Assembly: GCA_045863295.1 (NCBI GenBank)
Contig: BTWA01000006.1
Coordinates: 128,697-192,696, forward strand
Source: Candidatus Hydrogenedentota bacterium
GTDB taxonomy: Bacteria; Hydrogenedentota; Hydrogenedentia; Hydrogenedentales; SLHB01
Direction: 5' to 3'
Length of the DNA: 64,000 nt
Shown: one piece after another, positions 893 to 48,378 of the stretch
Numbering within the stretch: the stretch's first letter is position 1
Layout of the letters: each line of letters begins with the position of its first letter
Program-made: the position numbers and the translations under genes
Notes under the pieces: model-generated
What the model was told of the DNA's origin: nothing
Databases searched by the model: none
Seen by the model: only the letters and a program-made list of their open reading frames with translations

Positions 893-2638
893 TCAGGGAA
901 CAGGGAGTTGCGGAGATCCTGGAAATGCCCCAGACTGACCTCTCCCCACCCGAATCGTCTCGCCGGTTCGTCCATTGATGAATTCGGCAGTGGGCGGCGT
1001 CTCCGCAATCTGTTCGAGACGCCATGGATACATCAAATCGTCTCCAGGCGTCAGGCGCATCTCTTGTCCAGAGGATTCGAATCGAAAGATATGTCTGTCC
1101 CCAACGCTTCCCACGTACTTCACCCAAATCTGCGGGATGGAAGGCTGGGATGGCACAGGAGACACGGGGGGCTCAATCCTGTCCCCATCCGGAGGCGGTT
1201 CGGGCAACGGCGCAGGCGAACGCACCGGCGGCGTTGCACGTCGGACTTCGCGCGGACCGACCAGCCGCTCGGGGATAGGGATCGCAATTCTATTCTGAAC
1301 GGCATTCGACCCCCGCACAAAACGGATTTCGACGGCATCGGCTTCAGGCACTGTACGGCGAATCTCGTACATATCCAGAAGCAGCGACAAAGCGAACCGT
1401 GGCTGCACAGGCACACTTGTACCCTGTCCCACGCTTTCACCACGAAACCGCCAGACATCACCGTCCATCGGGATGGGCCGGAAGTCGTCCTCCCCTGAAA
1501 CACGTGCGTAAACCTCGACCCCAAACTCCGCTTCCGCCTCGGCTTGTCTCGGTATGGAAACGGAACGTGGTTGGCTGCCATTGTTTCGAATAACAACATT
1601 GACAAGTCCACGGGTGGGATTGCTCAATGTGGCTTCAAATTCCAAATTGGGCGCGCTCCGCATAAATGCCGAGGCGGCAAGCAGGACGCCCATGGAAACA
1701 AGCAATATTCCTCCGGCGACCGCCGCCTGTCTGAACGTGGCTGAAAGTGTATTGGCGGATGGGGCTACCCGCTGCGCGCCAAGGTAGACCAGCGCAACGC
1801 CGGTCATGCTGTACAGCATGGATCCTGCGTGGTATATCTGCAGAAATGAGGACAAATAGCTCGCATCGAGCGGCCACGACGCCCAGGCCAGACCCGGCAA
1901 AAGACCCGCGGCAAACAGGATCAAGCCGTTGACCAGAAGCCCCCATCCGGCCAACCGGCTTTTACGTCTCATCGCAAAGGGGGGCGCAAAAAGCGGCAGC
2001 ACGAGCCAAATGGACCAAATCCAATTCAGGCCGTTCGCCGGTGGATTCGTGCGAACCCACGTAAACAGGGAAATCGACTGGTCGTTTGACCAAGTCCAAG
2101 GCATGAATACGGAGGCAATGGCGAAGGCCGACAGTACTAGGGTTAGCCACAGGTGACCGGTGGGGACTTGAGGGATTACGGGAGGCAACAGTGCGGCATA
2201 GCGATCCAGCGGCAAGTCAATGAATCCACCGAGTTCGTCCGCATTTCTCGCCGCTCGAATCTGGTTCATGAATGCGATATCGGCGTCCATCGACGCCAGT
2301 TCCTCCAGGCTCTTGCGGTTCAAGTCGTTGGCAAGAGGTCCCGGCACACTGTTTTGTGCCACTTGCCGGAGTAAAACGTTGCGTTTTTCCTGCAGGCGCT
2401 TTTGCTCGGCGACCAATTCGTCAAGATATCGATTGCATTGAGTGCGAATCTTGGCCACGGCGGCTTCGGCAATCTGAATGTCGTAATGGTAACGATGAAT
2501 CAGATCCTTGTGGCGTTCCGGCGATAAGGCGCGCTCCTTAAGCGCGCGATCACATTCCGAGCAGGCGGTACGCAATTTTTGGCATTGCGACAAGGCAATG
2601 CGGAGCGATTTCTGAAGTTCCTTCTTACTCACGCGCAC
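893..2638 (-). CDS. hypothetical protein: N-terminal coiled coil, central multi-TM region, proline-rich C-terminus
   Basis: 581-aa ORF overlapping the pyrG start by 14 nt. It has a heptad-like charged N-terminus, four to six hydrophobic helices ([52 protein letters not shown]...) and a PxxP-rich tail. I recognise no family. Confidence 0.45.
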
Positions 2639-8862: not shown

Positions 8863-9185
8863 GGCTGATTGTTGGTCACACTTGAGTAACTCTATGACTT
8901 CATATGCCTGATTGACGCTGGTATCCCACTTTTTGATTAATCGAAATTGACCGCCTAATAATGTGAAATACGTGACAAATAATGCGAATAACTCCCACAG
9001 GTCCAGTAGTTGGCGGGATATTCCAAAAACAGCGAGCCGTCACTTACGAAAACTGCATATAATTCCGCGTAAAAGCAAACAACTCTTTACATTCATTTCA
9101 TCCATCCTACTTTTGGCGCGCGACTTGCTTGTTGATTTGGCAATCATAGGATTTGGCCGGTGTAAAACGGAAAGGCAGGCTACAC

Positions 9186-9938
9186 ATGAAAAAGCGATTG
9201 GCGCTGGCAATAACAGTCTTCGCGGCGGGGATGGTGGCATTCCCTGCAGCAGCGGATTTTATCACGTTCTCAGGCTCCGGACCTGGCGACGGAAGCAATG
9301 GACTGGCTGCTGAGGCCACATTCACCATTACGGGCAATACGCTCACGGTCTTATTGACCAATACGTCCACGGACTTCTCCGAGATTCCTTCCGAGTCCTT
9401 GACGGGCGTTTACTTCGACTTGCTCAATGGCAATAGCCTCACGGGCGTTTCGGCGATTGTCGCGGCGGGCAGCACAGTGGTGAATGGAGTGGCCGGCCCC
9501 GGCGGCGACGTGGGCGGCGAATTCGCCTATCTGGCCAACATTTCTTCGGGCTTCAACGGAGCCAGCTACGGCATAAGTAGCAGCGGCATGGACGATGTGT
9601 TCGGCCCCGGCGACCGGTTTAACAACAACGATTTGGATGGGCCGGCCTCACCGAACGGCATGAATTACGGGCTAATCTCCGCCGCCGGACTTGGGCCAAA
9701 TGCCAATGCGCCCATGCTGAGCGAGCCGTTCATCCAGAATGCGGTCTTGTTCTCCTTCACTTTCTCCGGTGCGCTTTCGACAAGTGACATCGGCAATGTG
9801 AATTTCCAATACGGCACGAGCCAAAGTCAGCCGAACATCACCACCTCGGTGGTGCCAGAGCCGGCGACCATTTCGCTCATTGCACTGGGACTTGCGGGTC
9901 TGGCCATTCGACGGAACCGTCGCCGTATTGCAGCGTAA
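9186..9938 (+). CDS. PEP-CTERM sorting-domain secreted protein (exosortase substrate)
   Basis: Signal peptide MKKRLALAITVFAAGMVAFPAAA. The Gly/Ser/Asn-rich body is followed by the C-terminal VPEP motif, one TM helix (ATISLIALGLAGLAI) and a basic tail RRNRRRIAA. Confidence 0.7.
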   Translation: MKKRLALAITVFAAGMVAFPAAADFITFSGSGPGDGSNGLAAEATFTITGNTLTVLLTNTSTDFSEIPSESLTGVYFDLLNGNSLTGVSAIVAAGSTVVNGVAGPGGDVGGEFAYLANISSGFNGASYGISSSGMDDVFGPGDRFNNNDLDGPASPNGMNYGLISAAGLGPNANAPMLSEPFIQNAVLFSFTFSGALSTSDIGNVNFQYGTSQSQPNITTSVVPEPATISLIALGLAGLAIRRNRRRIAA

Positions 9939-10446: not shown

Positions 10447-10488
10447 GTGGCGTCGTCGGAAAAACCGGCAGACGCCACATTCTTTTTT
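10447..10488. terminator. bidirectional rho-independent terminator between convergent rpmB and the 10487..11665 gene
   Basis: gtggcgtcgtcgg-aaaaacc-ggcagacgccac followed by attctttttt. A-rich on the 5' side and T-rich on the 3' side. Confidence 0.6.
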
Positions 10489-11665
10489 ACGTGGGCCCGT
10501 TCACTTCCAAGGTTAGGTCCCTCCCAATAACGGTACGAGTATTCAACTCGAAATCGGAATAATGCTTCTCCGCGAAATAGACGGCCAGCGGCCGGACTTG
10601 GCCTGTATAGCGTATTTTTAATCGAGCCAGAGTGGTGGATGCATACAAGGTGTCCACGGATTCAACATGCCAGTCGGCCTTAATCGCGCTGGCGATCTCC
10701 TCCACTCTTTCCGTGGTCCCCGGATTCTCAATGGTCAGAAACACCGATTCCCTGGCGTCGTCCAAAAACATACCCAGCACGACCGACCGGAGGATCGACT
10801 CAGGCAGTTTGGCGCAGGCATCCAGAACAGCTTGCCGGCATCCTTCCTCTGGAACCAGACTGTGGACCTTACCGCTTGCGGTGTGCGTATCGACAACCAA
10901 TCCGTCCAACGCGCGCACTACTTTGACCGTGACCGTGACACGGTTTTCATGCACTCCCTTGCCATTGGCCAACGGCTCAGAAACGGCGTGGGCACTTCCG
11001 CAGACAACCATGTCGGCCAGCAGGCCTCGTGCAACAAGACATAGCCTCTGAAGTTGGTCGTTGTTCTCAATGTCCAGCGGGGTGTCGCCGAAACGCCTTA
11101 GGACCTCATCGGCGGGCGATTGATCGAAGCGACGGCCTTTCAGTTCATCCGCGAGCGTTTGTGTGAGCAGTGGCAGCGGCGCGTTATCCCATTCCGCGCA
11201 GCGTCCGCCAATCAAGACCAACTGAGCGGGTACCATCAACGCATCCAGAGCGAGGGCTGCGGCATTTTTGCGCAGCATCTCGCTGTCCACAACCGCTTCG
11301 ACATCGACGCGAGTGGATTCTTCGGTGGTTTCTTGCTTGACGATTTGATACGTGCGGACGTACGCCTCGGCATGATCGATTATGGGGGCGAAGGTCACCA
11401 GATTGCGGCTGGGCACCCAATTCTCCAGCTCTTGCGCAACTAACGCTTTGAGGGCGTTGCCCGCGGCCTCATGCCTTGCCGCCGGTCCCAGCCCGATGGC
11501 CTCGCCAGAGACAGTCACTCGTTCGATATCCGATGGGTCAGTTACCTGTGCCACGGCGGGAAGTAATGCAAGGATTACCGCGATGGGAGCGATCCGGAAG
11601 CGCCAGTGGTAGCCGGATTGGCGAACGGATCTCAGGGAAGCCGGGCAGACCTGGCTTGGACCCAT
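10487..11665 (-). CDS. hypothetical secreted/periplasmic protein
   Basis: 392-aa ORF with a signal-like stretch FRIAPIAVILALLPAVAQV. No recognisable motifs. It is last in the minus-strand run parA-like/bactofilin/Zn-peptidase/this gene. Confidence 0.4.
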   Translation of the reverse strand: MGPSQVCPASLRSVRQSGYHWRFRIAPIAVILALLPAVAQVTDPSDIERVTVSGEAIGLGPAARHEAAGNALKALVAQELENWVPSRNLVTFAPIIDHAEAYVRTYQIVKQETTEESTRVDVEAVVDSEMLRKNAAALALDALMVPAQLVLIGGRCAEWDNAPLPLLTQTLADELKGRRFDQSPADEVLRRFGDTPLDIENNDQLQRLCLVARGLLADMVVCGSAHAVSEPLANGKGVHENRVTVTVKVVRALDGLVVDTHTASGKVHSLVPEEGCRQAVLDACAKLPESILRSVVLGMFLDDARESVFLTIENPGTTERVEEIASAIKADWHVESVDTLYASTTLARLKIRYTGQVRPLAVYFAEKHYSDFELNTRTVIGRDLTLEVNGPT

Positions 11666-11747
11666 TTCAACTCCCCTCCAAAATCACCGAACCAGCAAAA
11701 AAATCGGGGCGGCGCTCAGGTCGCACCGCCCCGGTTACACGTACCTG

Positions 11748-12467
11748 CTACTCGCGCCGCGCGGCCATAATCAAGTACAAGAGCTGGAGCACGGCACCGC
11801 ACGCAGCCGCGACATAGGTCAGCGCAGCTGCATTCAGGACTTTACGGGCGCCGTGCAGCTCGTCCTGCGTCAGATACCCGCCGTCGGCCAGGGCACGCAT
11901 TGCACGCCTGCTTGCGTCAAACTCCACCGGCAGCGTGATTAATGTAAATGCGACGGCCACGGAAAACAGACCGATACCCAGGGTCAACAGAAACGGAAAC
12001 TGTGCCTGGAAAAAGAAACCGCCGAGAATGAGGAACCACGAGAGATTCGACGTGATACCCACCATCGGCACGATCGCATTGCGCCACATGAGTGGAGCGT
12101 ACATACGCGCGTGTTGAATGGCATGACCTACTTCATGCGCTGCGACGCCCAAGGCGGCAATGCTTTGGCCTGCATAGACGCCTTCCGACAGTCGCAACGT
12201 GCGATCGCGGGGGTCATAGTGGTCGCTCAAGTGGCCCGGCACCGCCTCCAATCCCACGGCAAAACCGCGGGCGGACTTGGGGTCGTTCGAAATGGCCAAA
12301 TTCGCGTCGCGTACAATGCGGGCGGCCACTTCCGCGCCGCTCAATCCGCTTCGTGTGCCGATTTGCGAATACTTCGCGTAGGCTGCCTTGACTTTGAATT
12401 GGGCGTAAAGCGAGAGAAGAAACGCCGGCAACATCCAAAGAAGTTGATCCAAGAACATTACGGGCAT
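11748..12467 (-). CDS. membrane-associated zinc metallopeptidase (Zn_peptidase_2 / YugP-like family)
   Basis: The HEVGH zinc motif is flanked by hydrophobic helices at both termini. Size (239 aa) and layout are typical of this putative neutral zinc metallopeptidase family. Confidence 0.65.
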   Translation of the reverse strand: MPVMFLDQLLWMLPAFLLSLYAQFKVKAAYAKYSQIGTRSGLSGAEVAARIVRDANLAISNDPKSARGFAVGLEAVPGHLSDHYDPRDRTLRLSEGVYAGQSIAALGVAAHEVGHAIQHARMYAPLMWRNAIVPMVGITSNLSWFLILGGFFFQAQFPFLLTLGIGLFSVAVAFTLITLPVEFDASRRAMRALADGGYLTQDELHGARKVLNAAALTYVAAACGAVLQLLYLIMAARRE

Positions 12468-12491: not shown

Positions 12492-13100
12492 TTACTGCTG
12501 TTGTTGTTGCTGTTGCTGCTGCGCCGCCTTCTGTTCCGTCCTTTGGGCAGGCGGCCGCATGGCGCACGTACCATTGAATAGTGCACCTTCCTCAATAACA
12601 ATGCGCCGTGCCCGAATATTGCCTTGAAGGGAAGCCCCGGCCACCAGCCGTAGCGTACCACCCGTTGTCACATCACCAAATATCTTGCCGCCGATGACAA
12701 CTTGTTTTCCGGCCATAGCTTCCGCATTCAGCCGTGCTGTGCGCCCCAGTTCCAATTCCTGGGAGCATTCCACCTTGCCTTCGACGAGCCCTTCTATTTT
12801 GCAGGAACCCGCCCGGACGTTGCCGGTCACGAGAGCACTCGCGCCCAGGTATAGACGGCCATCGACGGTCACGTCTCCTTCAATCTTACCGGCAATTTCC
12901 GTTTCCGATCCGCTCATCAGATTGCCCTGAATGATGACGCCTTCGGGCACTACCATTCGCTGCAGCTTGATTGTGCGGGCACGCCGGATCGCCAAGTCAT
13001 CCGCCGTGACTTCCGGATCGTTTCCGCCTTCTTCCGCGGGCGATCGGGTGCGGCCTGTGCCCCGGCTCGATTGAATGGCATCCTGAAACGCCGCTCCCAT
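12492..13100 (-). CDS. bactofilin-family cytoskeletal protein with C-terminal poly-Gln tail
   Basis: Repetitive beta-helix pattern (IEGDVTVDGRLYLG..VTGNVRAGSCKIEGLVEGKVEC...IGGKIFGDVTTGGTLRLVAGASLQGNIRARRIVIEEGALFNG) typical of the bactofilin (DUF583) domain. It ends in QQQQQQQQQ. The start is conservatively placed at the Met at 13100; an in-frame GTG at 13253 abutting the upstream stop is also possible. Confidence 0.7.
   Translation of the reverse strand: MGAAFQDAIQSSRGTGRTRSPAEEGGNDPEVTADDLAIRRARTIKLQRMVVPEGVIIQGNLMSGSETEIAGKIEGDVTVDGRLYLGASALVTGNVRAGSCKIEGLVEGKVECSQELELGRTARLNAEAMAGKQVVIGGKIFGDVTTGGTLRLVAGASLQGNIRARRIVIEEGALFNGTCAMRPPAQRTEQKAAQQQQQQQQQ
12495..12530. repeat. CAG/CAA trinucleotide repeat (12 units) encoding the poly-Q tail
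   Basis: The plus strand reads ctgctgttgttgttgctgttgctgctgctg immediately upstream of the stop complement. It is a simple-sequence tract. Confidence 0.8.
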
Positions 13101-13255
13101 ACGGGAAAAGAGTCCGCCTTCACCGCGGCGTCCGGCCTCTGCCAATGCCTCATAGGTGTCGCCCTCTTCCACAACCGGATCCGCGGGCGGTTTGGCCTCG
13201 GGCACGGCCGGACGGGCTTGCGTGAATTTCTTGGGTTCGGAACGATCCAACACGA

Positions 13256-14239
13256 TCAAAAGTACCCCAACCGGTTCGCGATATCGACGACATTCGCCGC
13301 AATCTTGTGATTTGAATGGCTCACGACAAATGGCGTGCCTGTGTTGATGGCGTCGGGCACGCATTTGTCAAAATACATGTACCCCAGGTTCTCCGGCTCG
13401 ATCATCAACTGCTGCCGGGCGAACTTGGAAAGTATGTTCACCGCGATCTGGGCCTCGTACGTATTACGTACGCGGTTGACCACGATCTTCGGCCGGATGC
13501 TCTTTGCAATGGCCAGAATCTCGCCGCAGATCTTCTTCTTCGTGAGGTCGTCGAACAGGTCCGACTCCTTCACGCAGTGGATAAATTCACGAAGGCTTTC
13601 GTTGCGTTTCAAAAGCAACGCCACTTCCGGGCTCTGGTAAAAGCGTTCGATCCGGCGGAATAGAGCCGCCCGCAGGAATTTAAACGCATTGTCGATACTG
13701 GTCTTTTCCGGAGTGATGACCAGCACGCCACTCGTATCGGACATCAGGAAAAAGTCGAGCGTATTCAAGTGCGCGCCGGCATCGAGATCCACAATGATCA
13801 GATCCGCTTCCAACTGCCGGAGTTCCCGGATCAGCGCCACCTTCTGCTGGTATTTTGGGTTCGCCACCTCGAGCAGGCCGGTCGTCCCCGGAATCATCTT
13901 CAGATTCTCGTACTTCGTGTCGCACAGAATCCGTTGAATGTCTTTGCCGCCCCGCTGGTGGAAAAACTCATCCAGCTTGGTATCCGCCTCCACGCCTAAG
14001 ACGGTTTCCACGTTTGAACAGGTTAAATCGGCATCCACCACGATGACCCGATACCCCTTGCCGGAAACCTCGACCGCGAGGTTGACGGCAAAGCAGGTCT
14101 TCCCCACCCCGCCCTTGCCACCGCCAATGACAAGTATTTCCGGGTACTTGGGTTCTAACTGCGGAGATGCGGAAACCAGGGGTGTTTCTTCAATGAGCCG
14201 CACGTAGCGTTCTCCATAAAGCCCTGCCTGGCATGACAC
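13256..14239 (-). CDS. ParA/MinD-family P-loop ATPase
   Basis: Deviant Walker A in ILVIGGGKGGVGKT, then VVDADL and a Walker B IIVDLDAG. Length 327 aa. Its stop abuts the bactofilin reading frame. Confidence 0.8.
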   Translation of the reverse strand: MSCQAGLYGERYVRLIEETPLVSASPQLEPKYPEILVIGGGKGGVGKTCFAVNLAVEVSGKGYRVIVVDADLTCSNVETVLGVEADTKLDEFFHQRGGKDIQRILCDTKYENLKMIPGTTGLLEVANPKYQQKVALIRELRQLEADLIIVDLDAGAHLNTLDFFLMSDTSGVLVITPEKTSIDNAFKFLRAALFRRIERFYQSPEVALLLKRNESLREFIHCVKESDLFDDLTKKKICGEILAIAKSIRPKIVVNRVRNTYEAQIAVNILSKFARQQLMIEPENLGYMYFDKCVPDAINTGTPFVVSHSNHKIAANVVDIANRLGYF

Positions 14240-14485
14240 ACGAATGACTCACACTTCAGGTAAACGCTATCATACCCCACCTGCGGGAGTCAATCGATTT
14301 CCAATCCGGAATCTCGTTTAAACTCGCACGGCAATTGGATTTGGGACGGCCAGCCAAACCCTAAAAAGGTGCGGATCGGGTAAAAGCCGACACTTCGAGC
14401 ACGCCGATTGCCGTTGACGCCGTTACCTCATTCCAGATGCGCTATACTTGAGGACATTGGAGAATACCGAACCTCCGGAGGAACA

Positions 14486-15016
14486 ATGACTCCCATTGCC
14501 GGCGCAACGGTTGCCGACCGGAAAGGGCGCAACTACTGGAAATATGTACTCGGCGCCCTCGCCCTGTCCGCCGTAGGGTTCTGGTGTTTCGCCTTCTTCA
14601 CGAACATGGGCCCGTCCGCGCGCCCCGTGATCGCCTATCTTCTTTTTGCCTTGTTTGCCGTGGGAAGCGTCGGTGAAGTGCTCCGTGAAATCAGCCGTTA
14701 CCAACTTACCGAACACGGCATTGAATTGTACGCGCTGGGCTGGCGGCGCGAACGCATCCGCTGGGACCATGTGTGCGCATTGCGAACCCACAATTTCGAC
14801 CGGGCCACAAATGACCATGACGTCGATGAATTGCTCGACAAACCATTGAACTATGATTCCCGCCGGGGCGTGATCCTCACGCTCCGCAATGGCCGCGAAA
14901 TTACCCTGGAAACAGAAAGCCATCTGAACGAATTCTTCACCCTGCGCTTTATCAGCATGCATTGCCCGGCCGACTGCGTCCGCAACGGAGAATTCGCCGT
15001 ATTTCCAAACGCGTGA
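14486..15016 (+). CDS. hypothetical membrane protein (two TM helices plus PH-like soluble domain)
   Basis: The ORF shows two hydrophobic helices (YVLGALALSAVGFWCFAFF; VIAYLLFALFAVGSV) followed by a ~110-aa soluble domain. The antisense 276-aa ORF has low-complexity composition and was rejected. Confidence 0.4.
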   Translation: MTPIAGATVADRKGRNYWKYVLGALALSAVGFWCFAFFTNMGPSARPVIAYLLFALFAVGSVGEVLREISRYQLTEHGIELYALGWRRERIRWDHVCALRTHNFDRATNDHDVDELLDKPLNYDSRRGVILTLRNGREITLETESHLNEFFTLRFISMHCPADCVRNGEFAVFPNA

Positions 15017-15531
15017 CCGGCGCTCCGACCTTTCAATGCTAAAAGGAGTTTCCTGCCAGAGTCCGCACTGCGGACCAGGATTCGTGCGGTCCCTTATGGA
15101 CTGCGGCGGCAGAATCCCGCTACCCAGTGGGATGCCGACGGCACTTTGGCTCGGTGGAAGCGCGGACGCGGACAACAAATGAACGGCCCTGAATTCTGAA
15201 CGGTTCTCGGCTTCGAGAGCAAAAGCGGTGTCGACGGCTGTCGCCTTTGCCACCGCAATCCATAGAAACCCCTCTTACTTATCTGGGACCATCTGTTGCA
15301 TTTCCTTAGCGGATTGAAACAAGGGTAAATGATGGCATTACGTAGATTGCGTACTTTTTTGCAGAATGGAGTAAGTCGTCGCGATTCGCGACCAGTTCGT
15401 GTTGTGACCTTGCAGACTGTAGGTCCAAATTGGGTTCGCAACTCTCGGGTTAAAGGTTGTCTGTTTCCACTCAGCGCTATTTCTCGTAGTCAATTCGCTT
15501 CGTTGACGGCTACAACCGCTGTGGTGCGGTG

Positions 15532-27112: not shown

Positions 27113-29347
27113 CTATTGCGGTGCGGCGGGATTCGACAAGGCAAACTCGACTGAATCGATCGAACTAATATCCAGCGGTGTATACCATGAGTAAACGGCC
27201 ATTCCACCGCCGGAATATGCATGATTTTGATGACTCGCATTGACAGGCAATTCCTTACCGCCACGGTCATAGGCCGCGATTTTCGTTTCCTGCTGACTCA
27301 AGCCCTTCACGGTTAGCACGAAGGTTGATCCGGATTCCAAATCATCGTCGCTTGCACTCAATTTAATTTGACCGTTCGTATAAGCCGAAATGCCATCAAA
27401 TCGCTTTCCCGTGTAGGCAACCAACTCCGCTTGGGCCGGCGCAAATTGATCGGACACGTGGCTGCCTGTCCGGCCGTGAATAGCAAATCGCATCGGCGGC
27501 AACTTTTTTGCAGGTACGGTCTGAATGGAAGGCAATTTGACATCCTCAAAACAGAATCGTCTCTCTTCATGAAGCGGGTACAGCTCGACCCGCGCGATCG
27601 CTTCCGGCGCCACTTCGAATTCATGGATATGCGTTGGGCCATTGTCGATAGCCACAAAGAAATCGCTCCAATGCCGTTTGCCCATTGTGTCGACCACACA
27701 CAATTGATACCGCTTTCCTGCCAGTGCTCTCATAGGGTCATCAAGATCCACAACAATGTTGGAGCTTTGGGGATCGCCATTGGATTCGCCCCACTCGACA
27801 TCGCCGTTGGTTCGCATCTTATAGCCAGTCGTGCCCCCGTGGATTTCGCGCAAACGAACTTTCGCGGATCCCAATCGCGCACTGCTTCCTGCGGATCCTT
27901 TCAATACCGCATCCGGATCCGACGGCCGATGGCGCACCCGGAGCCAGATATCCAGCGACGGCGGAAGGGATCCCTGGATGCACATTAACTGAATCGTGCG
28001 GCCAACGAGGCGGTACCCGGCAGCATTCGGTCTGCCACTGTTCAGAAGCGTTCGGGTGGCATGATCAAATACCCGCAATTCCGTGATATCGAAGACATCG
28101 GCGACCGGACCAATTTGTATGGAGGCAATATCCACCGCATCCAGGATTTGCTTGTCCGGTGATGCGCCGTTCCAGGCAGCCGCGAACGGATTACCGTCGC
28201 CGTCTTCGACGAGCGGTTGACCACCGATATTCCACCGGACAACTTTGTCGATCGTGAACTGTGTTGGCCCTAACGTGAATTCATTCGCCGTGGTGGATGG
28301 CGCTTTTTCGTATGCGGCTTCATCGCCTGCAATGCCGCTCGAGAATACCGCAGAACAAGCGAACAGTAAGAGAAATGCCGTGGAGATTGAAATTACTTGT
28401 ACACGATTCGGGTGCGCTGGGGCCTGGAGCGTCAACTTTCGTAAACGGGCAACAAGATGCGAACGCCGGGCCATGGGAAGCGCCAAACGAATTTGACTGT
28501 GATGCAAAGCCACCTGAGCCAGCGCCCGGCGGTAGTCCGAGGCCGATCCCAGAGCACGTGCCGCGGTTTCATCGCACGCTTCTTCGCACGCCTGGCGATG
28601 GATGCGCGCCATGTGCCACAACATTGGATAGAACCATGCGAGGGCACATGCAAATTCAAACACAACCGACCATTGCAGGTCCCTTTGTTTTAGATGTGCG
28701 CACTCATGCAGGAGGACAGCCGTGAGGTTGCCGCTGGTACCTTTGGTTTCAGGCACGATTATGACCGGACTCCAAATCCCGGCAATTGCAGGCCCGCCTT
28801 CCGCGATCTGGATTCGTGGAGTTGAATGAAGCCCGATTCGTCTTGCCAGGACGCCAACGTGATTCAAGAGCGCCGCGTCGGCGAGGTGACCTGATCGGGC
28901 GCAGCGCTCGGTCGCTGCGATAGCAGCAATCGTCCGCGAGAGGAATACGATGGCTCCCGTTATCCAGATTCCAAGCAGCCCAAGTCTCCAATCGAACTGG
29001 CTTTCAACAGGCGGGGCGCCTTGCAGCGGGAACGCGCTTTCAGACGACACTGCCCTCGCTGGCACGTCCTCGGAGGCCCGATCCGGCTGAACGGCAGCGA
29101 AGGCCCTCTTGCCAACGCCGGCATCCGAAGGCAATTCCACTCGATAGGTGTACTCCGGTACGAGCAGCACGACAAAAGGATAACTAATGACAGCAAGCAA
29201 AGAGATTCGCAACGCGGTGACACGCGCCGCCGGATGCCAATGAAGTATCAGGATGTTTGCGATCCAACACATGATAATCAGCGCGGAGAACTTGATGAGG
29301 ATCAGGGTCCATTCGGGCATCATCGCCCAAGCAGCCAGCCAATTCAC
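27113..29347 (-). CDS. BlaR1/MecR1-type M56 peptidase signal transducer with ~450-aa extracytoplasmic C-terminal domain
   Basis: Four N-terminal TM helices. The HExxH zinc motif HECAHLKQRD occurs in the M56 context. The large C-terminal domain is unassigned. GTG start overlaps the blaI stop (GTGA). Confidence 0.75.
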   Translation of the reverse strand: MNWLAAWAMMPEWTLILIKFSALIIMCWIANILILHWHPAARVTALRISLLAVISYPFVVLLVPEYTYRVELPSDAGVGKRAFAAVQPDRASEDVPARAVSSESAFPLQGAPPVESQFDWRLGLLGIWITGAIVFLSRTIAAIAATERCARSGHLADAALLNHVGVLARRIGLHSTPRIQIAEGGPAIAGIWSPVIIVPETKGTSGNLTAVLLHECAHLKQRDLQWSVVFEFACALAWFYPMLWHMARIHRQACEEACDETAARALGSASDYRRALAQVALHHSQIRLALPMARRSHLVARLRKLTLQAPAHPNRVQVISISTAFLLLFACSAVFSSGIAGDEAAYEKAPSTTANEFTLGPTQFTIDKVVRWNIGGQPLVEDGDGNPFAAAWNGASPDKQILDAVDIASIQIGPVADVFDITELRVFDHATRTLLNSGRPNAAGYRLVGRTIQLMCIQGSLPPSLDIWLRVRHRPSDPDAVLKGSAGSSARLGSAKVRLREIHGGTTGYKMRTNGDVEWGESNGDPQSSNIVVDLDDPMRALAGKRYQLCVVDTMGKRHWSDFFVAIDNGPTHIHEFEVAPEAIARVELYPLHEERRFCFEDVKLPSIQTVPAKKLPPMRFAIHGRTGSHVSDQFAPAQAELVAYTGKRFDGISAYTNGQIKLSASDDDLESGSTFVLTVKGLSQQETKIAAYDRGGKELPVNASHQNHAYSGGGMAVYSWYTPLDISSIDSVEFALSNPAAPQ

Positions 29348-29727
29348 CGTTGGTCTCCTTCGTCATCCCGATCAGGGCCATCGCCGTACGCGATACGCCT
29401 TATCTCTTCCATATCCTCCGCACTGAGTTTCTCCGTCTTTACGAAATGCGCTAGCAAGCGCTTCGTGGATCCATTGGCAAAGGCGTCTGCCATCGCGCGC
29501 AGGGATTCTTTAAATGCTTTGTCCCGGCGGGTCTTCGCTTTGTAATAGTAAGCCTTGCCCACCTTGCGCCGCGTTACATGTCCCTTTTCGAGCAGAATGG
29601 CCAAATACGATCGCAGTGCGGAGTTCTGCAACCTTCGAGGCAGCAGGTCCTGAATTTCCGACGGCTTCAACTCATTATGATTCCACAGTACTTGCATGCA
29701 CTGCAGTTCGCCAGGAGTAAATCGCAT
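29344..29727 (-). CDS. BlaI/MecI/CopY-family transcriptional repressor
   Basis: Winged-helix N-terminus (LQCMQVLWNHNELKPSEIQDLL) with a C-terminal dimerisation helix. Length 127 aa. The ORF track's longer version would run into purK and was trimmed to Met104. Confidence 0.75.
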   Translation of the reverse strand: MRFTPGELQCMQVLWNHNELKPSEIQDLLPRRLQNSALRSYLAILLEKGHVTRRKVGKAYYYKAKTRRDKAFKESLRAMADAFANGSTKRLLAHFVKTEKLSAEDMEEIRRIAYGDGPDRDDEGDQR

Positions 29728-29849
29728 AGTGCCGTGCTCCGTTACCGCCTTATATGCAGTATAGTCTGCACATTCTGGGGCGTCAAGAAGTTTCTGCAGA
29801 CTACTCTGCACATTATCGGGGATACGGCTGGGAATCGAAAAGGACAGGT

Positions 29850-30992
29850 CTAGGCGCGGTGGATGAGCGTTTCTCGCGCGGCGAGCACGGCATTCTTCGC
29901 CGATTCCACGGACTGGGCAAGTGCCGTGAGGTGGCCCATCTTGCGTCCGGGCCGGGCTTCGCGTTTTCCGTAGAGATGGATCTTCACGTCGGCCATGGCG
30001 CAAGCGGCCGCCCAGTCCGGTTCGCCGTTTACCCACAAATCGCCAAGCAGGTTGACCATGGCGGCGGGCCGCAGCAGCCCTGGATTACCGAGCGGCAACC
30101 CGCACACCGCGCGGAGTTGTTGTTCAAATTGGCTCGTGACCGCAGCATCGAAAGTCAGGTGTCCCGAATTGTGGGGCCGCGGAGCCAACTCATTGACTAG
30201 CAACGTTCCTGATCGGGTCAAGAAGAACTCAACGCACAACACGCCGACAACCTCAAGCTTTTCCATGATGCCCCGGGTGATCTCTACAGCGTCTTTCGCC
30301 ACGGTTTCGGGTACCGGCGCGGGCGATACCGTAACATCAAGAATGTGATTGGCATGGGTATTTTCAAAGATCTCGTGGCTGACAAACGTGCCGTCCATCC
30401 CGCGCGCGCCGATGACCGAGAGTTCACGTTCGAAATCGACGAACTGTTCCAGTACGGACTCCTGCTCTCCCACGGCTTTCCATGCGGATGAAAGGTCACT
30501 TCCGTCGAGAATCTTGGACTGGCCTTTTCCGTCGTACCCCCAACCTGCGGTTTTGAGCACGCACGGGCAGCCATTTGCGGCAATTGCCGCCTCCAGTTCC
30601 TGCATGGAATGGATATGCGTGAATTCGGGCACAGGAAAGCCGTTGGACTTCAGGAATGTTTTTTCGCGCAAGCGATGCTGGGTGACATGGAGCACCGAAC
30701 CTGCCGGGCGCACGGGCGCGCGGCCCTCGGCTGTCTCAGCCGTGATTGCGGGCACATTCTCAAACTCGAACGTCACGACATCCACGTTTGCCGCAAAGTC
30801 ACGCACCCGGTCCAGGTCGTCGTATTCGCCGCAGACTTCGACATCGGCGACTTGTCCGGTGGGTGTATCGTAATCCGGCGAATAGGTATGAACGCGATAT
30901 CCCATGCGGCGTGCCTTGAGGGTAAACATGCGCCCCAATTGGCCGCTGCCCAAGACCCCGATTGTCGACCCGGGCAGAACAATGGGGGTCAC
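29850..30992 (-). CDS. purK: N5-carboxyaminoimidazole ribonucleotide synthase
   Basis: ATP-grasp enzyme. The N-terminus [12 protein letters not shown] and overall PurK colinearity are present. It has a 4-nt overlap with purE. Confidence 0.9.
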
Positions 30993-46539: not shown

Positions 46540-47647
46540 AGGATTTAGGGCGATAGCCTACAAAGAATCCATACACATTTTGCGTGACCCTCGCACGCTC
46601 TTTTTGATGTTGATCATTCCTGGCATTCAATTGACTGTCTTTGGGTATGCAATTGACCTTGAGGTAAAACACATTCCGACCGTTGTGTACAACCTGGACG
46701 GCCGCGAAGACAGCCACCGTTTGATAGAGAGTTTCGTCAATACGGGCTATTTTGATCTTGTTGCGTACGTATCCTCGGATGACGAATTGGTTTCCCGAAT
46801 CGTACGCAATCAGGCCAAAGTTGGCATCAAGATTCCACCGGATTATTCAGATGGCTTGCTATCCGGACGCGGATCGCAGGTACAAGTGCTTATAGACGGC
46901 AGCGACTCAACCCAGGCCATGCAGGCACTGAACGCTTCGAACGGGATTGCGTTCGAGAAGTCATTCGAATTACTGGCGACGGTGCAGCAGGGCGAAATTC
47001 AGCAACCGATTCAGACCCGTCCCCGCATTCTATTCAATCCGGATATGAAGACGGCGAACTTCATGGTGCCCGGTTTGGTAGGGATTGTCATGCAGGTTGT
47101 GACCATGTTCCTGACCGCGTTTGCCATCGTCCGCGAAAAGGAATTGGGAACACTGGAACAATTGATGGCGACACCGGTATCGAGGCTTGGACTCATGACC
47201 GGAAAATTGGCCCCGTACTGCGTCATCGGTTCTTTCGAAACGTCTGTCGTGTTGCTGCTTATGCGTTTCCTGTTCCAAGTGCCGATTTCCGGTAGCATTC
47301 TCTTGTTGGCGGCGCTCTCCCTGTTGTTCCTGTTTACGGCGCTTGGACTCGGGATCATGGTTTCCACCATTGCATCCACGCAGGTCGAGGCCATGCAACT
47401 GGCGTTTGTCATCATGCTGCCATCGGTGCTCTTGTCGGGATTTATCTTTCCGCAGGAATCGATGCCTTTGCCCATCTATGTAATCGGGAAACTTTTGCCT
47501 GCCACGTATTTTATTCGCATACTCAGGGGGATCATTTTGCGCGGCGCCACGTTTACGGATTTGTACATGGACGCCTTCTGGCTTGCGCTCATCGGGTTCG
47601 TCATTCTGGCCATCAGTACACGGCGCTTCAGGAAGACGCTGGCGTGA
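46532..47647 (+). CDS. ABC-2 family transporter permease
   Basis: The N-terminal TM is followed by a large periplasmic loop and then five TM helices (ABC2_membrane_3 topology). Confidence 0.8.
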   Translation: MFRGFRAIAYKESIHILRDPRTLFLMLIIPGIQLTVFGYAIDLEVKHIPTVVYNLDGREDSHRLIESFVNTGYFDLVAYVSSDDELVSRIVRNQAKVGIKIPPDYSDGLLSGRGSQVQVLIDGSDSTQAMQALNASNGIAFEKSFELLATVQQGEIQQPIQTRPRILFNPDMKTANFMVPGLVGIVMQVVTMFLTAFAIVREKELGTLEQLMATPVSRLGLMTGKLAPYCVIGSFETSVVLLLMRFLFQVPISGSILLLAALSLLFLFTALGLGIMVSTIASTQVEAMQLAFVIMLPSVLLSGFIFPQESMPLPIYVIGKLLPATYFIRILRGIILRGATFTDLYMDAFWLALIGFVILAISTRRFRKTLA

Positions 47648-47879
47648 GGTGGCGCTCTGCGTAAGCGCACTTCTTCACTGCCGTTCTCAGCACCGCAGCA
47701 ACGAACAAGGCTTGCGCAAGGGTCGTTCTGCCCGACAGTTCCGAATTCATTTCAATTCGAGACAAAAGGGAACAGTCGGGACAAAGGGAATGGCTGGTGG
47801 GCTCGAATAACGGATCGTGATTCTCAATCCACTCGTTGTCGTCCCGCACGCGTTTGCATTTACAACACTGAACTGTCAT
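47628..47879 (-). CDS. small Cys-rich protein, possibly DUF1289 family (Fe-S/zinc-ribbon-like)
   Basis: 83-aa ORF MTVQCCKCKRVRDDNEWIENHD...CPDC. The CxC-K-R-x-R-D-x-x-E-W segment resembles the DUF1289 core (CxGCxRxRDExxxW). It overlaps the permease 3' end by 20 nt convergently. Confidence 0.35.
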   Translation of the reverse strand: MTVQCCKCKRVRDDNEWIENHDPLFEPTSHSLCPDCSLLSRIEMNSELSGRTTLAQALFVAAVLRTAVKKCAYAERHLTPASS

Positions 47880-47961
47880 GTTTATGGCCCCGTTAAGACC
47901 GCATCCCACTGTATTTATCGGATTGAATGCTGGAAAGCTTGAGTTCGAGGAGTTTCCGCCT

Positions 47962-48378
47962 ATGTATCCGCATTGGAATCGCACCCCATCGACGGAAGTC
48001 GAGTGGTTCGAGGCACTTGCAAGCCTTGCGCGATATTTGAGAGGCCCGGATGGATGCCCCTGGGACCGGGAACAATCCTCGTCGGATTTTGCCCGGTACG
48101 CGGTGGAAGAGGCCCGCGAATGGCAGGACTCATACGAAAGGGGCGACAACCGGCACATTGAAGAGGAATTTGGCGATACCTTATTTGTCATGTTGGCGGC
48201 GGCCGCCGCTGCCGAAGAAGAAGGTCGGTTCAATCTGAAGAATGCCATGGTTCGGGCTCATGAGAAAATGATCCGGCGCCATGAACATGTATTTGGCGAG
48301 GAAAAAGCCTCGACGCCGGAGGAGGCTATTGCCATGTGGAACCGCATCAAGGCTAAGGAAAAGGAGCAATCCGCATGA
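47962..48378 (+). CDS. MazG-family nucleoside triphosphate pyrophosphohydrolase
   Basis: EExxE-type motif region EAREWQD....EEEFGDTLF, which is characteristic of MazG/all-alpha NTP-PPase. Confidence 0.6.
   Translation: MYPHWNRTPSTEVEWFEALASLARYLRGPDGCPWDREQSSSDFARYAVEEAREWQDSYERGDNRHIEEEFGDTLFVMLAAAAAAEEEGRFNLKNAMVRAHEKMIRRHEHVFGEEKASTPEEAIAMWNRIKAKEKEQSA

Follow-up and report, generated by a model that had tools for sequence, protein, structure and literature searches.

The locus described here raises the question of what a ParA/MinD-type ATPase does when its gene directly precedes that of a bactofilin. The two genes lie on the minus strand of a 64-kb stretch of DNA (the window, i.e. the whole stretch that was analysed) from a metagenome-assembled genome (MAG) of Candidatus Hydrogenedentota, and are followed on the same strand by genes encoding a membrane Zn-metallopeptidase and P392, a secreted or periplasmic protein of 392 aa. 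ParA/MinD ATPases are general-purpose positioning machines of bacteria, with a short list of cargos: the chromosome, plasmids, the divisome, flagella, chemoreceptor arrays, carboxysomes, and conjugation machinery. Bactofilins, in turn, occur widely as scaffolds and polymerise without nucleotide; because their polymerisation is nucleotide-independent, the control of their placement and length is, to our knowledge, largely unexplained. At the genomic level, it is well supported that the ATPase and the bactofilin form a functionally coupled module without an adaptor of the PadC/ParB type. Scaffolds of bactofilin and ParA are already known; what appears to be new here, judging from the sequences, is an unclassified ATPase of the FlhG/MinD branch coupled to a bactofilin with no adaptor.

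The ATPase gene (315 aa; 13256..14203, minus strand) and the bactofilin gene (253 aa and the stop codon; 12492..13253, minus strand) are adjacent: 2 nt separate the TGA of the former (13258-13256) from the GTG of the latter (13253-13251), the whole junction spanning 13251..13258 of the minus strand. A preliminary description of this DNA had a MinD/ParA-type ATPase directly upstream of a bactofilin, on the same strand, ending exactly where the bactofilin starts. The order and the strand are as described, and the contact is exact save for these two nucleotides. The maximal open reading frame (ORF) of the ATPase occupies 13256..14239, with GTG 14239 as the upstream limit. The homologues and the NCBI gene call (P0001, AMXMBFR84_13490, 315 aa, 100% identical) open with MRLIEE, and therefore GTG 14203 is the most likely start. 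For the bactofilin, the open frame extends over 12492..13364, and the homologues have MLDRS, often with ATG as the start codon, at the position equivalent to GTG 13253. The other candidate start offered in the preliminary description, Met 13100, is ruled out, since about 50 codons upstream of it are conserved as protein and the homologues start at the position of GTG 13253. A second gene caller chose TTG 13259 for the bactofilin, which yields a 4-nt overlap with the ATPase stop. The gene order is reproduced in an independent assembly.

With each GTDB species represented by a single genome, a scan with the ATPase alignment yielded 61 loci. Most of them bear the label Hydrogenedentota. In a few others, the label is 'uncultured Nitrospiraceae' or 'uncultured bacterium', yet these share the synteny, at 60-76% identity. 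The conservation of the pairing had been left by the preliminary description to a survey of related neighbourhoods, and this survey finds it nearly throughout: in 53 of the 55 loci with at least 700 nt downstream of the ATPase, a bactofilin follows immediately, with the ATPase identity going down to 48%. In most of these 53 loci, the gap is exactly 2 nt or the genes overlap by 4 nt, a spacing that suggests translational coupling of the ATPase and the bactofilin. The two remaining loci (L004:8936-13086 and L005:2781-3849) represent a single AMX-MBFR-82-like lineage in two independent assemblies. There, a convergent gene of 470 aa stands in the place of the bactofilin, and on the longer contig, L004, it is followed by a 904-aa gene of unknown function.

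The reverse search, a metagenome scan with the bactofilin alignment, produced 45 loci with a family-type bactofilin, 35 of them with at least 700 nt upstream. The ATPase is directly upstream in 31 of these 35, and in none of the 26 loci that have only distantly related bactofilins (0/26). The adjacency of the ATPase and the bactofilin is far beyond chance. Among the four family-type loci with a different upstream neighbour, L113 has a homoserine dehydrogenase gene directly before the bactofilin. The linkage to other neighbours amounts to 39/44 for P392, 36/49 for the Zn-peptidase, 17/44 for lipA, and 10/40 for rpmB. Of all pairs among the four genes of the cluster, the ATPase and the bactofilin have the highest correlation of pairwise distances (r 0.75; partial r 0.57 given the peptidase), the value for the bactofilin and P392 being r 0.72. 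Such mirror-tree correlations give weak support for co-evolution, because all four genes share the species tree.

The ATPase family is sharply set off by profile score. In an exhaustive profile search of 1.84 billion representatives with the ATPase family, the scores fall from 445-261 bits within the family to ~210 bits past it. In all, 839 representatives lie under E 1e-30; the best 150 listed match nearly the whole profile, including a basic insertion described below, and most of the 839 probably do likewise. The members of this wider group, past the family itself, come from MAGs labelled Deltaproteobacteria and Nitrospirota and carry the automatic label 'FlhG'. The neighbourhoods of six wider-group ATPases are varied, and contain neither a flagellar gene nor a bactofilin. 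Thus, the nearest outgroup ATPases share the insertion but never adjoin a bactofilin, and therefore the pairing is specific to this ATPase family; an extra in-family representative, P0243, has a bactofilin as the next gene, again with a 4-nt overlap. In two outgroup ATPases, the overlapping downstream gene encodes a protein with DnaJ and HTH_25 domains, the latter a helix-turn-helix of the RodZ type. The cases are L062:5918-6520 and L069:1024-1899 (the Deltaproteobacteria-labelled cluster P0250/P0391, and P0260), and this protein may be another lineage-specific partner of the ATPase superfamily. Comparison by eye of the bactofilins with the DnaJ-HTH_25 partners revealed no common N-terminal peptide. 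Other outgroup ATPases adjoin polysaccharide-export or nucleotidyl-transferase genes.

The ATPase is a P-loop protein with all features that define the A/D superfamily, namely the deviant Walker A motif KGGxxGK[ST], the signature lysine, and the switch and Walker B aspartates. Its own deviant Walker A motif reads GGGKGGVGKT (14096..14125, minus strand), with Lys30 as the signature lysine and Lys35 in the P-loop. Residues G29, K30, G31, G32, G34, and K35 are invariant in 22 homologues, and so are the switch and Walker B aspartates D57, D59, D134, and D139. Pfam matches are AAA_31, ParA, and CbiA, each with E ~1e-14. By its sequence, the protein is complete in the residues that ATP-dependent sandwich dimerisation and hydrolysis require.

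To assign the ATPase to a class, we relied on profiles and on an AlphaFold2 (AF2) model (pLDDT 78.8, pTM 0.80). Foldseek with this model gave 278 PDB matches at E <= 0.001, with FleN, FlhG, MinD, Soj, and McdA heading the list (for FlhG/FleN, E 1.7e-14 and TM to target 0.74-0.83). The family profile ranks the PDB in the same way: FlhG 4rz2 (E 4e-25) and FleN 5j1j (E 9e-25) come first, then MinD, then Soj, with the identity to FlhG/FleN being just 18-21%. None of the curated NCBIfam models is passed. The top matches are minD models, the archaeal TIGR01969 at 78 bits (cutoff 201.75) and the bacterial TIGR01968 at 69.1 bits (cutoff 212.9); the ParA partition model NF041546 reaches 35.5 bits against a cutoff of 180, and the RepA and SopA models stay far under theirs. 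Hence, on profile and model evidence, the ATPase is best placed in the FlhG/MinD branch, nearer to FlhG/FleN and then to MinD, as an unclassified member of it, and not in the ParA branch. The earlier designation 'ParA/MinD-like' holds for the superfamily motifs and the fold; its ParA half has to be given up in favour of FlhG/MinD.

Relative to FlhG/FleN, the profile alignment has ~60 extra ATPase residues, which are modelled as four helices (167-189, 192-200, 204-213, and 219-235). This basic helical insertion (residues ~167-246; 13466..13705, minus strand) has a net charge of +8, while that of the whole ATPase is -1. It includes PEKTSIDNAFKFLRAALFRR, the top-conserved stretch of the ATPase, with residues invariant in the family alignment. 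In the profile alignment, this most conserved helix falls on the 'tpeptamtday' segment of FlhG, a helix of FlhG/MinD that we take to be the partner-binding helix 7 of MinD (the MinE/MinC site in MinD). At the same time, hallmarks of the known branch members are missing. FlhG is defined by an N-terminal DQAxxLR enhancer helix and a C-terminal membrane-targeting helix (PMC12826062). A regular-expression search, the relaxed form included, found the enhancer helix in none of the 22 family members. There is also no C-terminal amphipathic membrane-targeting helix, as the ATPase ends with ...DIANRLGYF at approximately residue 269 of the 295 residues of FlhG and consists of the core only. A hydrophobic-moment scan run on the C-terminus of the ATPase and on the N-terminus of the bactofilin did not discriminate, as these termini scored at least as high as known membrane peptides. 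Orthology with Soj or FlhG, which the preliminary description had named as the case that would speak against it, is not what we see: the ATPase is no Soj/ParA orthologue, and it fails the hallmarks of both FlhG and MinD.

The bactofilin, called by NCBI as P0121, is likewise firmly identified. It matches PF04519 (DUF583) at 90.3 bits (cutoff 27.9; E 9.9e-26) in two Pfam stretches, and PF04519 is present in all 120 listed homologues. The core in the AF2 model, residues ~100-236, is an all-beta helix of ~135 residues with pLDDT 94-98. The top three PDB matches by Foldseek are 6rib (Thermus), 2n3d (BacA), and 6ria, all bactofilins, with weak E-values (0.012-0.056), as is to be expected when a repetitive fold sits in a model with a disordered half. 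The profile, the beta-helix, and the best PDB matches thus all uphold the original assignment. Caulobacter BacA and Thermus TtBac share PF04519 and the beta-helix with this protein; in contrast to them, it has a longer core with two Pfam stretches, the N-terminus MLDRSEPKK, and an extension of ~100 aa with two conserved helices.

This N-terminal extension precedes the core and is modelled at low confidence, with short helices at residues 37-44, 50-64, and 86-95. It contains two blocks that are, in 54 sequences, as strongly conserved as the core. Block 1 (residues ~40-66; 13056..13136, minus strand; alignment A1) has the consensus AGK..GLFGRxNxxFxDxLQTSRG and includes an internal LFGRxNxxF helix, predicted at residues 50-64 with low model confidence. 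Block 2 (residues ~81-101; 12951..13013, minus strand) reads VTADDLAIRRAR..QRM.VPEG and has the predicted short helix 86-95 directly before the beta-helix. Residues A86, D87, D88, A90, R92, R93, and A94 are invariant in the alignment, with 90-99% column identity in the 54 sequences. To our eye, the motif ADDLAI of this block (TADDLAIRRAR, 12951-13013) is loosely like the EIDAL peptide of the FliM/FliY N-terminus, a peptide that binds FlhG. The EIDAL peptide of FliM/FliY binds CheY as well (PMC6946799). The membrane-targeting motif of bactofilins is a peptide of the MFSKQAKS type, typical of the family and not obligatory (PMC12448750). It is absent from the N-terminus here, as the protein opens with MLDRSEPKK and its homologues with MLDRS, MTQ, or similar. 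At the other end, the low-complexity tail of nine glutamines (Q9; 12495..12521, minus strand) is present as the preliminary description had it, but it is not conserved: relatives carry variable Q/K-rich or short tails, and we dropped the genome-specific Q9 as a functional feature.

The gene identities, the folds, the catalytic motifs, and the tight reciprocal synteny are established, as is the absence of FlhG, MinD, and ParA hallmarks. A/D ATPases in general dimerise on ATP, bind a surface, and leave when a partner stimulates hydrolysis. Their genes usually stand beside that of the cargo or partner (PMC10241942), and they commonly contact the N-terminal region of the partner (PMC11407121). Given the near-universal bactofilin neighbour, the coupling, the conserved N-terminal peptides, and the alignment of the most conserved ATPase helix, a working pair is the most likely explanation, and we hold it with moderate confidence: the ATPase would either regulate the placement or assembly of the bactofilin or be scaffolded by its polymer. 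From this we infer a physical interaction, a direction of control, and an envelope output, as follows. The cluster would be a conserved Hydrogenedentota-specific operon, in which translation of the ATPase is coupled to that of the bactofilin and the two act as one unit. Beneath the membrane, the bactofilin would form a scaffold by nucleotide-independent polymerisation. The ATPase would bind it, with the two conserved helices of the N-terminal extension as candidate contact or activator sites, and would set where and how much bactofilin assembles. In the alternative direction, the ATPase would be held on the bactofilin polymer and position something else. The usual co-location of the Zn-peptidase and P392 hints at the cell envelope as the site of the output. 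The mechanism of 'scaffold plus ATPase localisation' put forward in the preliminary description is plausible.

A more specific version of the working pair, which we regard as possible and rather doubtful, makes the bactofilin both the matrix and the activating partner of a dedicated MinD/FlhG-type ATPase, giving a two-gene self-organising system. The helices LFGRxNxxF..LQTSRG and ADDLAIRRAR, arrayed along the filament, would bind the ATP-dimer and trigger hydrolysis, and a static nucleotide-independent polymer would gain energy-driven dynamics or positioning. Neither the nucleoid nor the membrane would serve as the surface, and the output would go through the envelope peptidase and the secreted protein. 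If the phylum-wide coupled pairing is true, the cargos and partners of ParA/MinD would include a cytoskeletal polymer, and bactofilin assembly would have, in the ATPase, a tangible candidate for its energy-dependent regulation. As both proteins are small and soluble, heterologous expression makes the idea testable. The pairing also suggests that Hydrogenedentota, a phylum for which we know of no cultured representative, organise the interior or the envelope of the cell in a manner not yet studied.

Several observations weigh against the ATPase and the bactofilin being such a pair. Four of the 35 bactofilin loci (L083, L113, and L114/L115) lack an adjacent ATPase, and the L004/L005 lineage has the ATPase without an adjacent bactofilin. 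Since exceptions run in both directions, linkage in cis is not obligatory for the pair. In the divergent relatives L113 (2866-4370) and L114/L115 (L115:2566-4306), the order bactofilin-peptidase-P392 is kept and other genes precede the bactofilin. The N-terminal motifs of the bactofilin persist in L113, where no ATPase is adjacent, and they may serve membrane or client binding instead of ATPase binding. By its sequence, the ATPase has no recognisable membrane helix and only a putative DNA-binding surface to serve it as a 'matrix'. Finally, flagellar, min, or par genes may be present elsewhere in the genome, the negatives on the gene context covering the 64-kb window.

Within the window, Pfam scans of large ORFs found no flagellar, min (minC, minE), par, or ftsZ/dcw division genes, in line with the lack of partitioning context noted earlier; for the related loci, only ~8 kb of flank were covered. 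One of the other explanations is flagellar. If the ATPase were the flagellar FlhG of the phylum, the bactofilin would aid flagellar assembly, and the cluster would be a module for flagellum number or placement. The ATPase shares with FlhG/FleN, its nearest solved relatives by profile and fold, the deviant Walker A and the switch and Walker B aspartates, and automatic annotation at JGI labels family members FlhG. Bacillus subtilis needs its bactofilins BacE/BacF to assemble the flagellar hook and filament (PMC4627819), and there are reports of flagellin genes from some Candidatus Hydrogenedentes (PMC7018530). The loose likeness of ADDLAI to the EIDAL peptide would also fit, and two of the 26 P392 members have a faint FlgT_N signal (E 0.02). 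However, this signal is below the threshold, and the identity to FlhG/FleN is low. The enhancer helix is found in 0/22 family members, the protein ends at the core fold, and the basic four-helix insertion is extra. The large ORFs scanned across the 64-kb window include no flagellar gene, and neither do the surroundings of the six related ATPases. The siting of FlhG by flhF, flhA, or fliA is not seen either, the neighbours here being the bactofilin, PF04298, P392, lipA, and rpmB. We therefore consider a flagellar role unlikely. The chances are somewhat poorer still for a Min/MipZ-like system that sets the division site or polarity. With the bactofilin as the mark of a cellular position, the ATPase would act from there on the divisome, inhibiting or guiding it. 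MinD is the second-closest structural group and supplies the top NCBIfam matches. It has the same fold and ATP-sandwich-dimer motifs, a partner-binding helix that aligns with the most conserved one here, and, in minE, a partner gene immediately downstream. In addition, several kinds of A/D ATPases position the divisome (PMC11407121). Unlike MinD, the ATPase scores only 69 bits against the 212.9 of TIGR01968, has no amphipathic C-terminal helix, and has neither minC, minE, ftsZ, nor dcw genes in the window; its downstream partner is a polymer-forming bactofilin, and the other genes conserved beside it encode a peptidase and a secreted protein rather than division proteins.

Two further explanations start from what bactofilins are known to do. 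In Myxococcus xanthus, a canonical chromosomal ParA is recruited to the BacNOP bactofilins via the ParB-like adaptor PadC (PMC5703909), and in Bdellovibrio, parA, parB, and a bactofilin gene are co-transcribed (PMC7186360). By this precedent of a scaffold holding ParA, the bactofilin would tether a DNA-bound ATPase, and hence the nucleoid, and the basic insertion (+8) could bind DNA. The likeness lies in a bactofilin polymer, putative here, that goes with an ATPase of the ParA/MinD superfamily; the Myxococcus case is the one that the preliminary description had invoked. Yet FlhG/MinD, and not Soj/ParA, are the closer relatives of the ATPase, which reaches 35 bits against the cutoff of 180 in the ParA partition model, whereas both precedents have a canonical ParA, with ParB in Bdellovibrio. 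Moreover, neither the window nor the conserved cluster contains a ParB- or PadC-like gene, the ATPase gene is joined to that of the bactofilin without anything in between, and the setting consists of housekeeping genes and not of a replication origin. Chromosome anchoring is accordingly very improbable. The remaining explanation is mere co-expression, the real unit being an envelope-shaping set of the bactofilin, the Zn-peptidase, and P392, to which the ATPase is unrelated. This set occurs without an adjacent ATPase in L113 and L114/L115, L083 also being ATPase-free upstream, and the bactofilin-P392 distances correlate almost equally well (r 0.72). Cooperation of bactofilins with peptidases is a known theme (PMC10945521), and morphogenesis modules of this kind have been described (PMC10945521, PMC9507126): in Hyphomonas BacA-LmdC and Helicobacter CcmA-Csd1/2, as here, the bactofilin is clustered with a peptidase and envelope proteins. 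Unlike here, their peptidases are M23 peptidoglycan endopeptidases rather than a polytopic PF04298 Zn-peptidase, and they have no dedicated A/D ATPase. Against mere co-expression, the phylum as a whole keeps the gap of 2 nt or the overlap of 4 nt, a spacing that partners with coupled translation typically have. The ATPase-bactofilin linkage (53/55) exceeds that of the bactofilin and the peptidase (36/49), and the ATPase family adjoins a bactofilin in every lineage but that of L004 and L005. We see this explanation, too, as improbable. A full-text search of the literature turned up no described pair of a MinD/ParA-like ATPase and a bactofilin other than the PadC system of Myxococcus and the parAB-bactofilin operon of Bdellovibrio.

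The Zn-peptidase and P392 are conserved parts of the cluster. The gene of the membrane Zn-metallopeptidase (PF04298, E 1.3e-83; 11748..12467, minus strand) starts 24 nt past the bactofilin stop, and its product has a HEVGH motif and several membrane segments. P392, which has a signal peptide and no Pfam match, follows at 10487..11665 (minus strand). Both genes and the 24-nt gap agree with the preliminary description, as does the absence of an obvious adaptor, the cluster holding the ATPase, the bactofilin, the PF04298 peptidase, and P392 alone. Between the Zn-peptidase stop and the P392 start, a consensus scan found a terminator-like hairpin (11695..11733, minus strand) with an 11-bp stem, 10 G-C pairs, and a tail of seven T. 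Separate transcription of P392 in this genome is therefore possible, in spite of its synteny in 39 of the 44 loci. The hairpin is suggestive only, because shuffled sequence has, in total, at least as many terminator-like sites as the region.

Among 5.8 billion proteins, a word-indexed search retrieved P392 alone, and its homologues were gathered from syntenic loci; those downstream in the 39 of 44 loci have 21-33% identity. In 26 syntenic homologues (alignment A3), the signal peptide is followed by a conserved GxAxGxGxAAR motif; identity of these 26 to the window protein is 19-30%, and the mean column identity is 38%. The P392 profile has only sub-threshold matches in Pfam and PDB, with faint FlgT_N and LPP20. 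By sequence, P392 appears to be a fast-evolving family of secreted proteins that travels with the cluster.

The rest of the window provides a housekeeping and transport context. By Pfam scans of large ORFs, it includes pyrG, kdsB, rpmB, lipA, hom, thrC, lipB, and purK, as well as pst-phoU, kdp, and two-component systems. The 1.1 kb between the ATPase and the divergent lipA (14240-15328) contain a plus-strand ORF of 176/202 aa that has no Pfam match. None of the 61 related loci has a homologue of it, and it is therefore a genome-specific or spurious gene. Two other ORFs, of 581 aa (893-2638, minus strand) and 206 aa (47628-48248, minus strand), are also without any Pfam match. A PEP-CTERM-anchored secreted protein (PF07589) is encoded just past rpmB at 9153-9938 (plus strand), and a sensor-repressor pair, consisting of a BlaR1-like M56 peptidase and a BlaI/Penicillinase_R protein, at 27113-30036 (minus strand).

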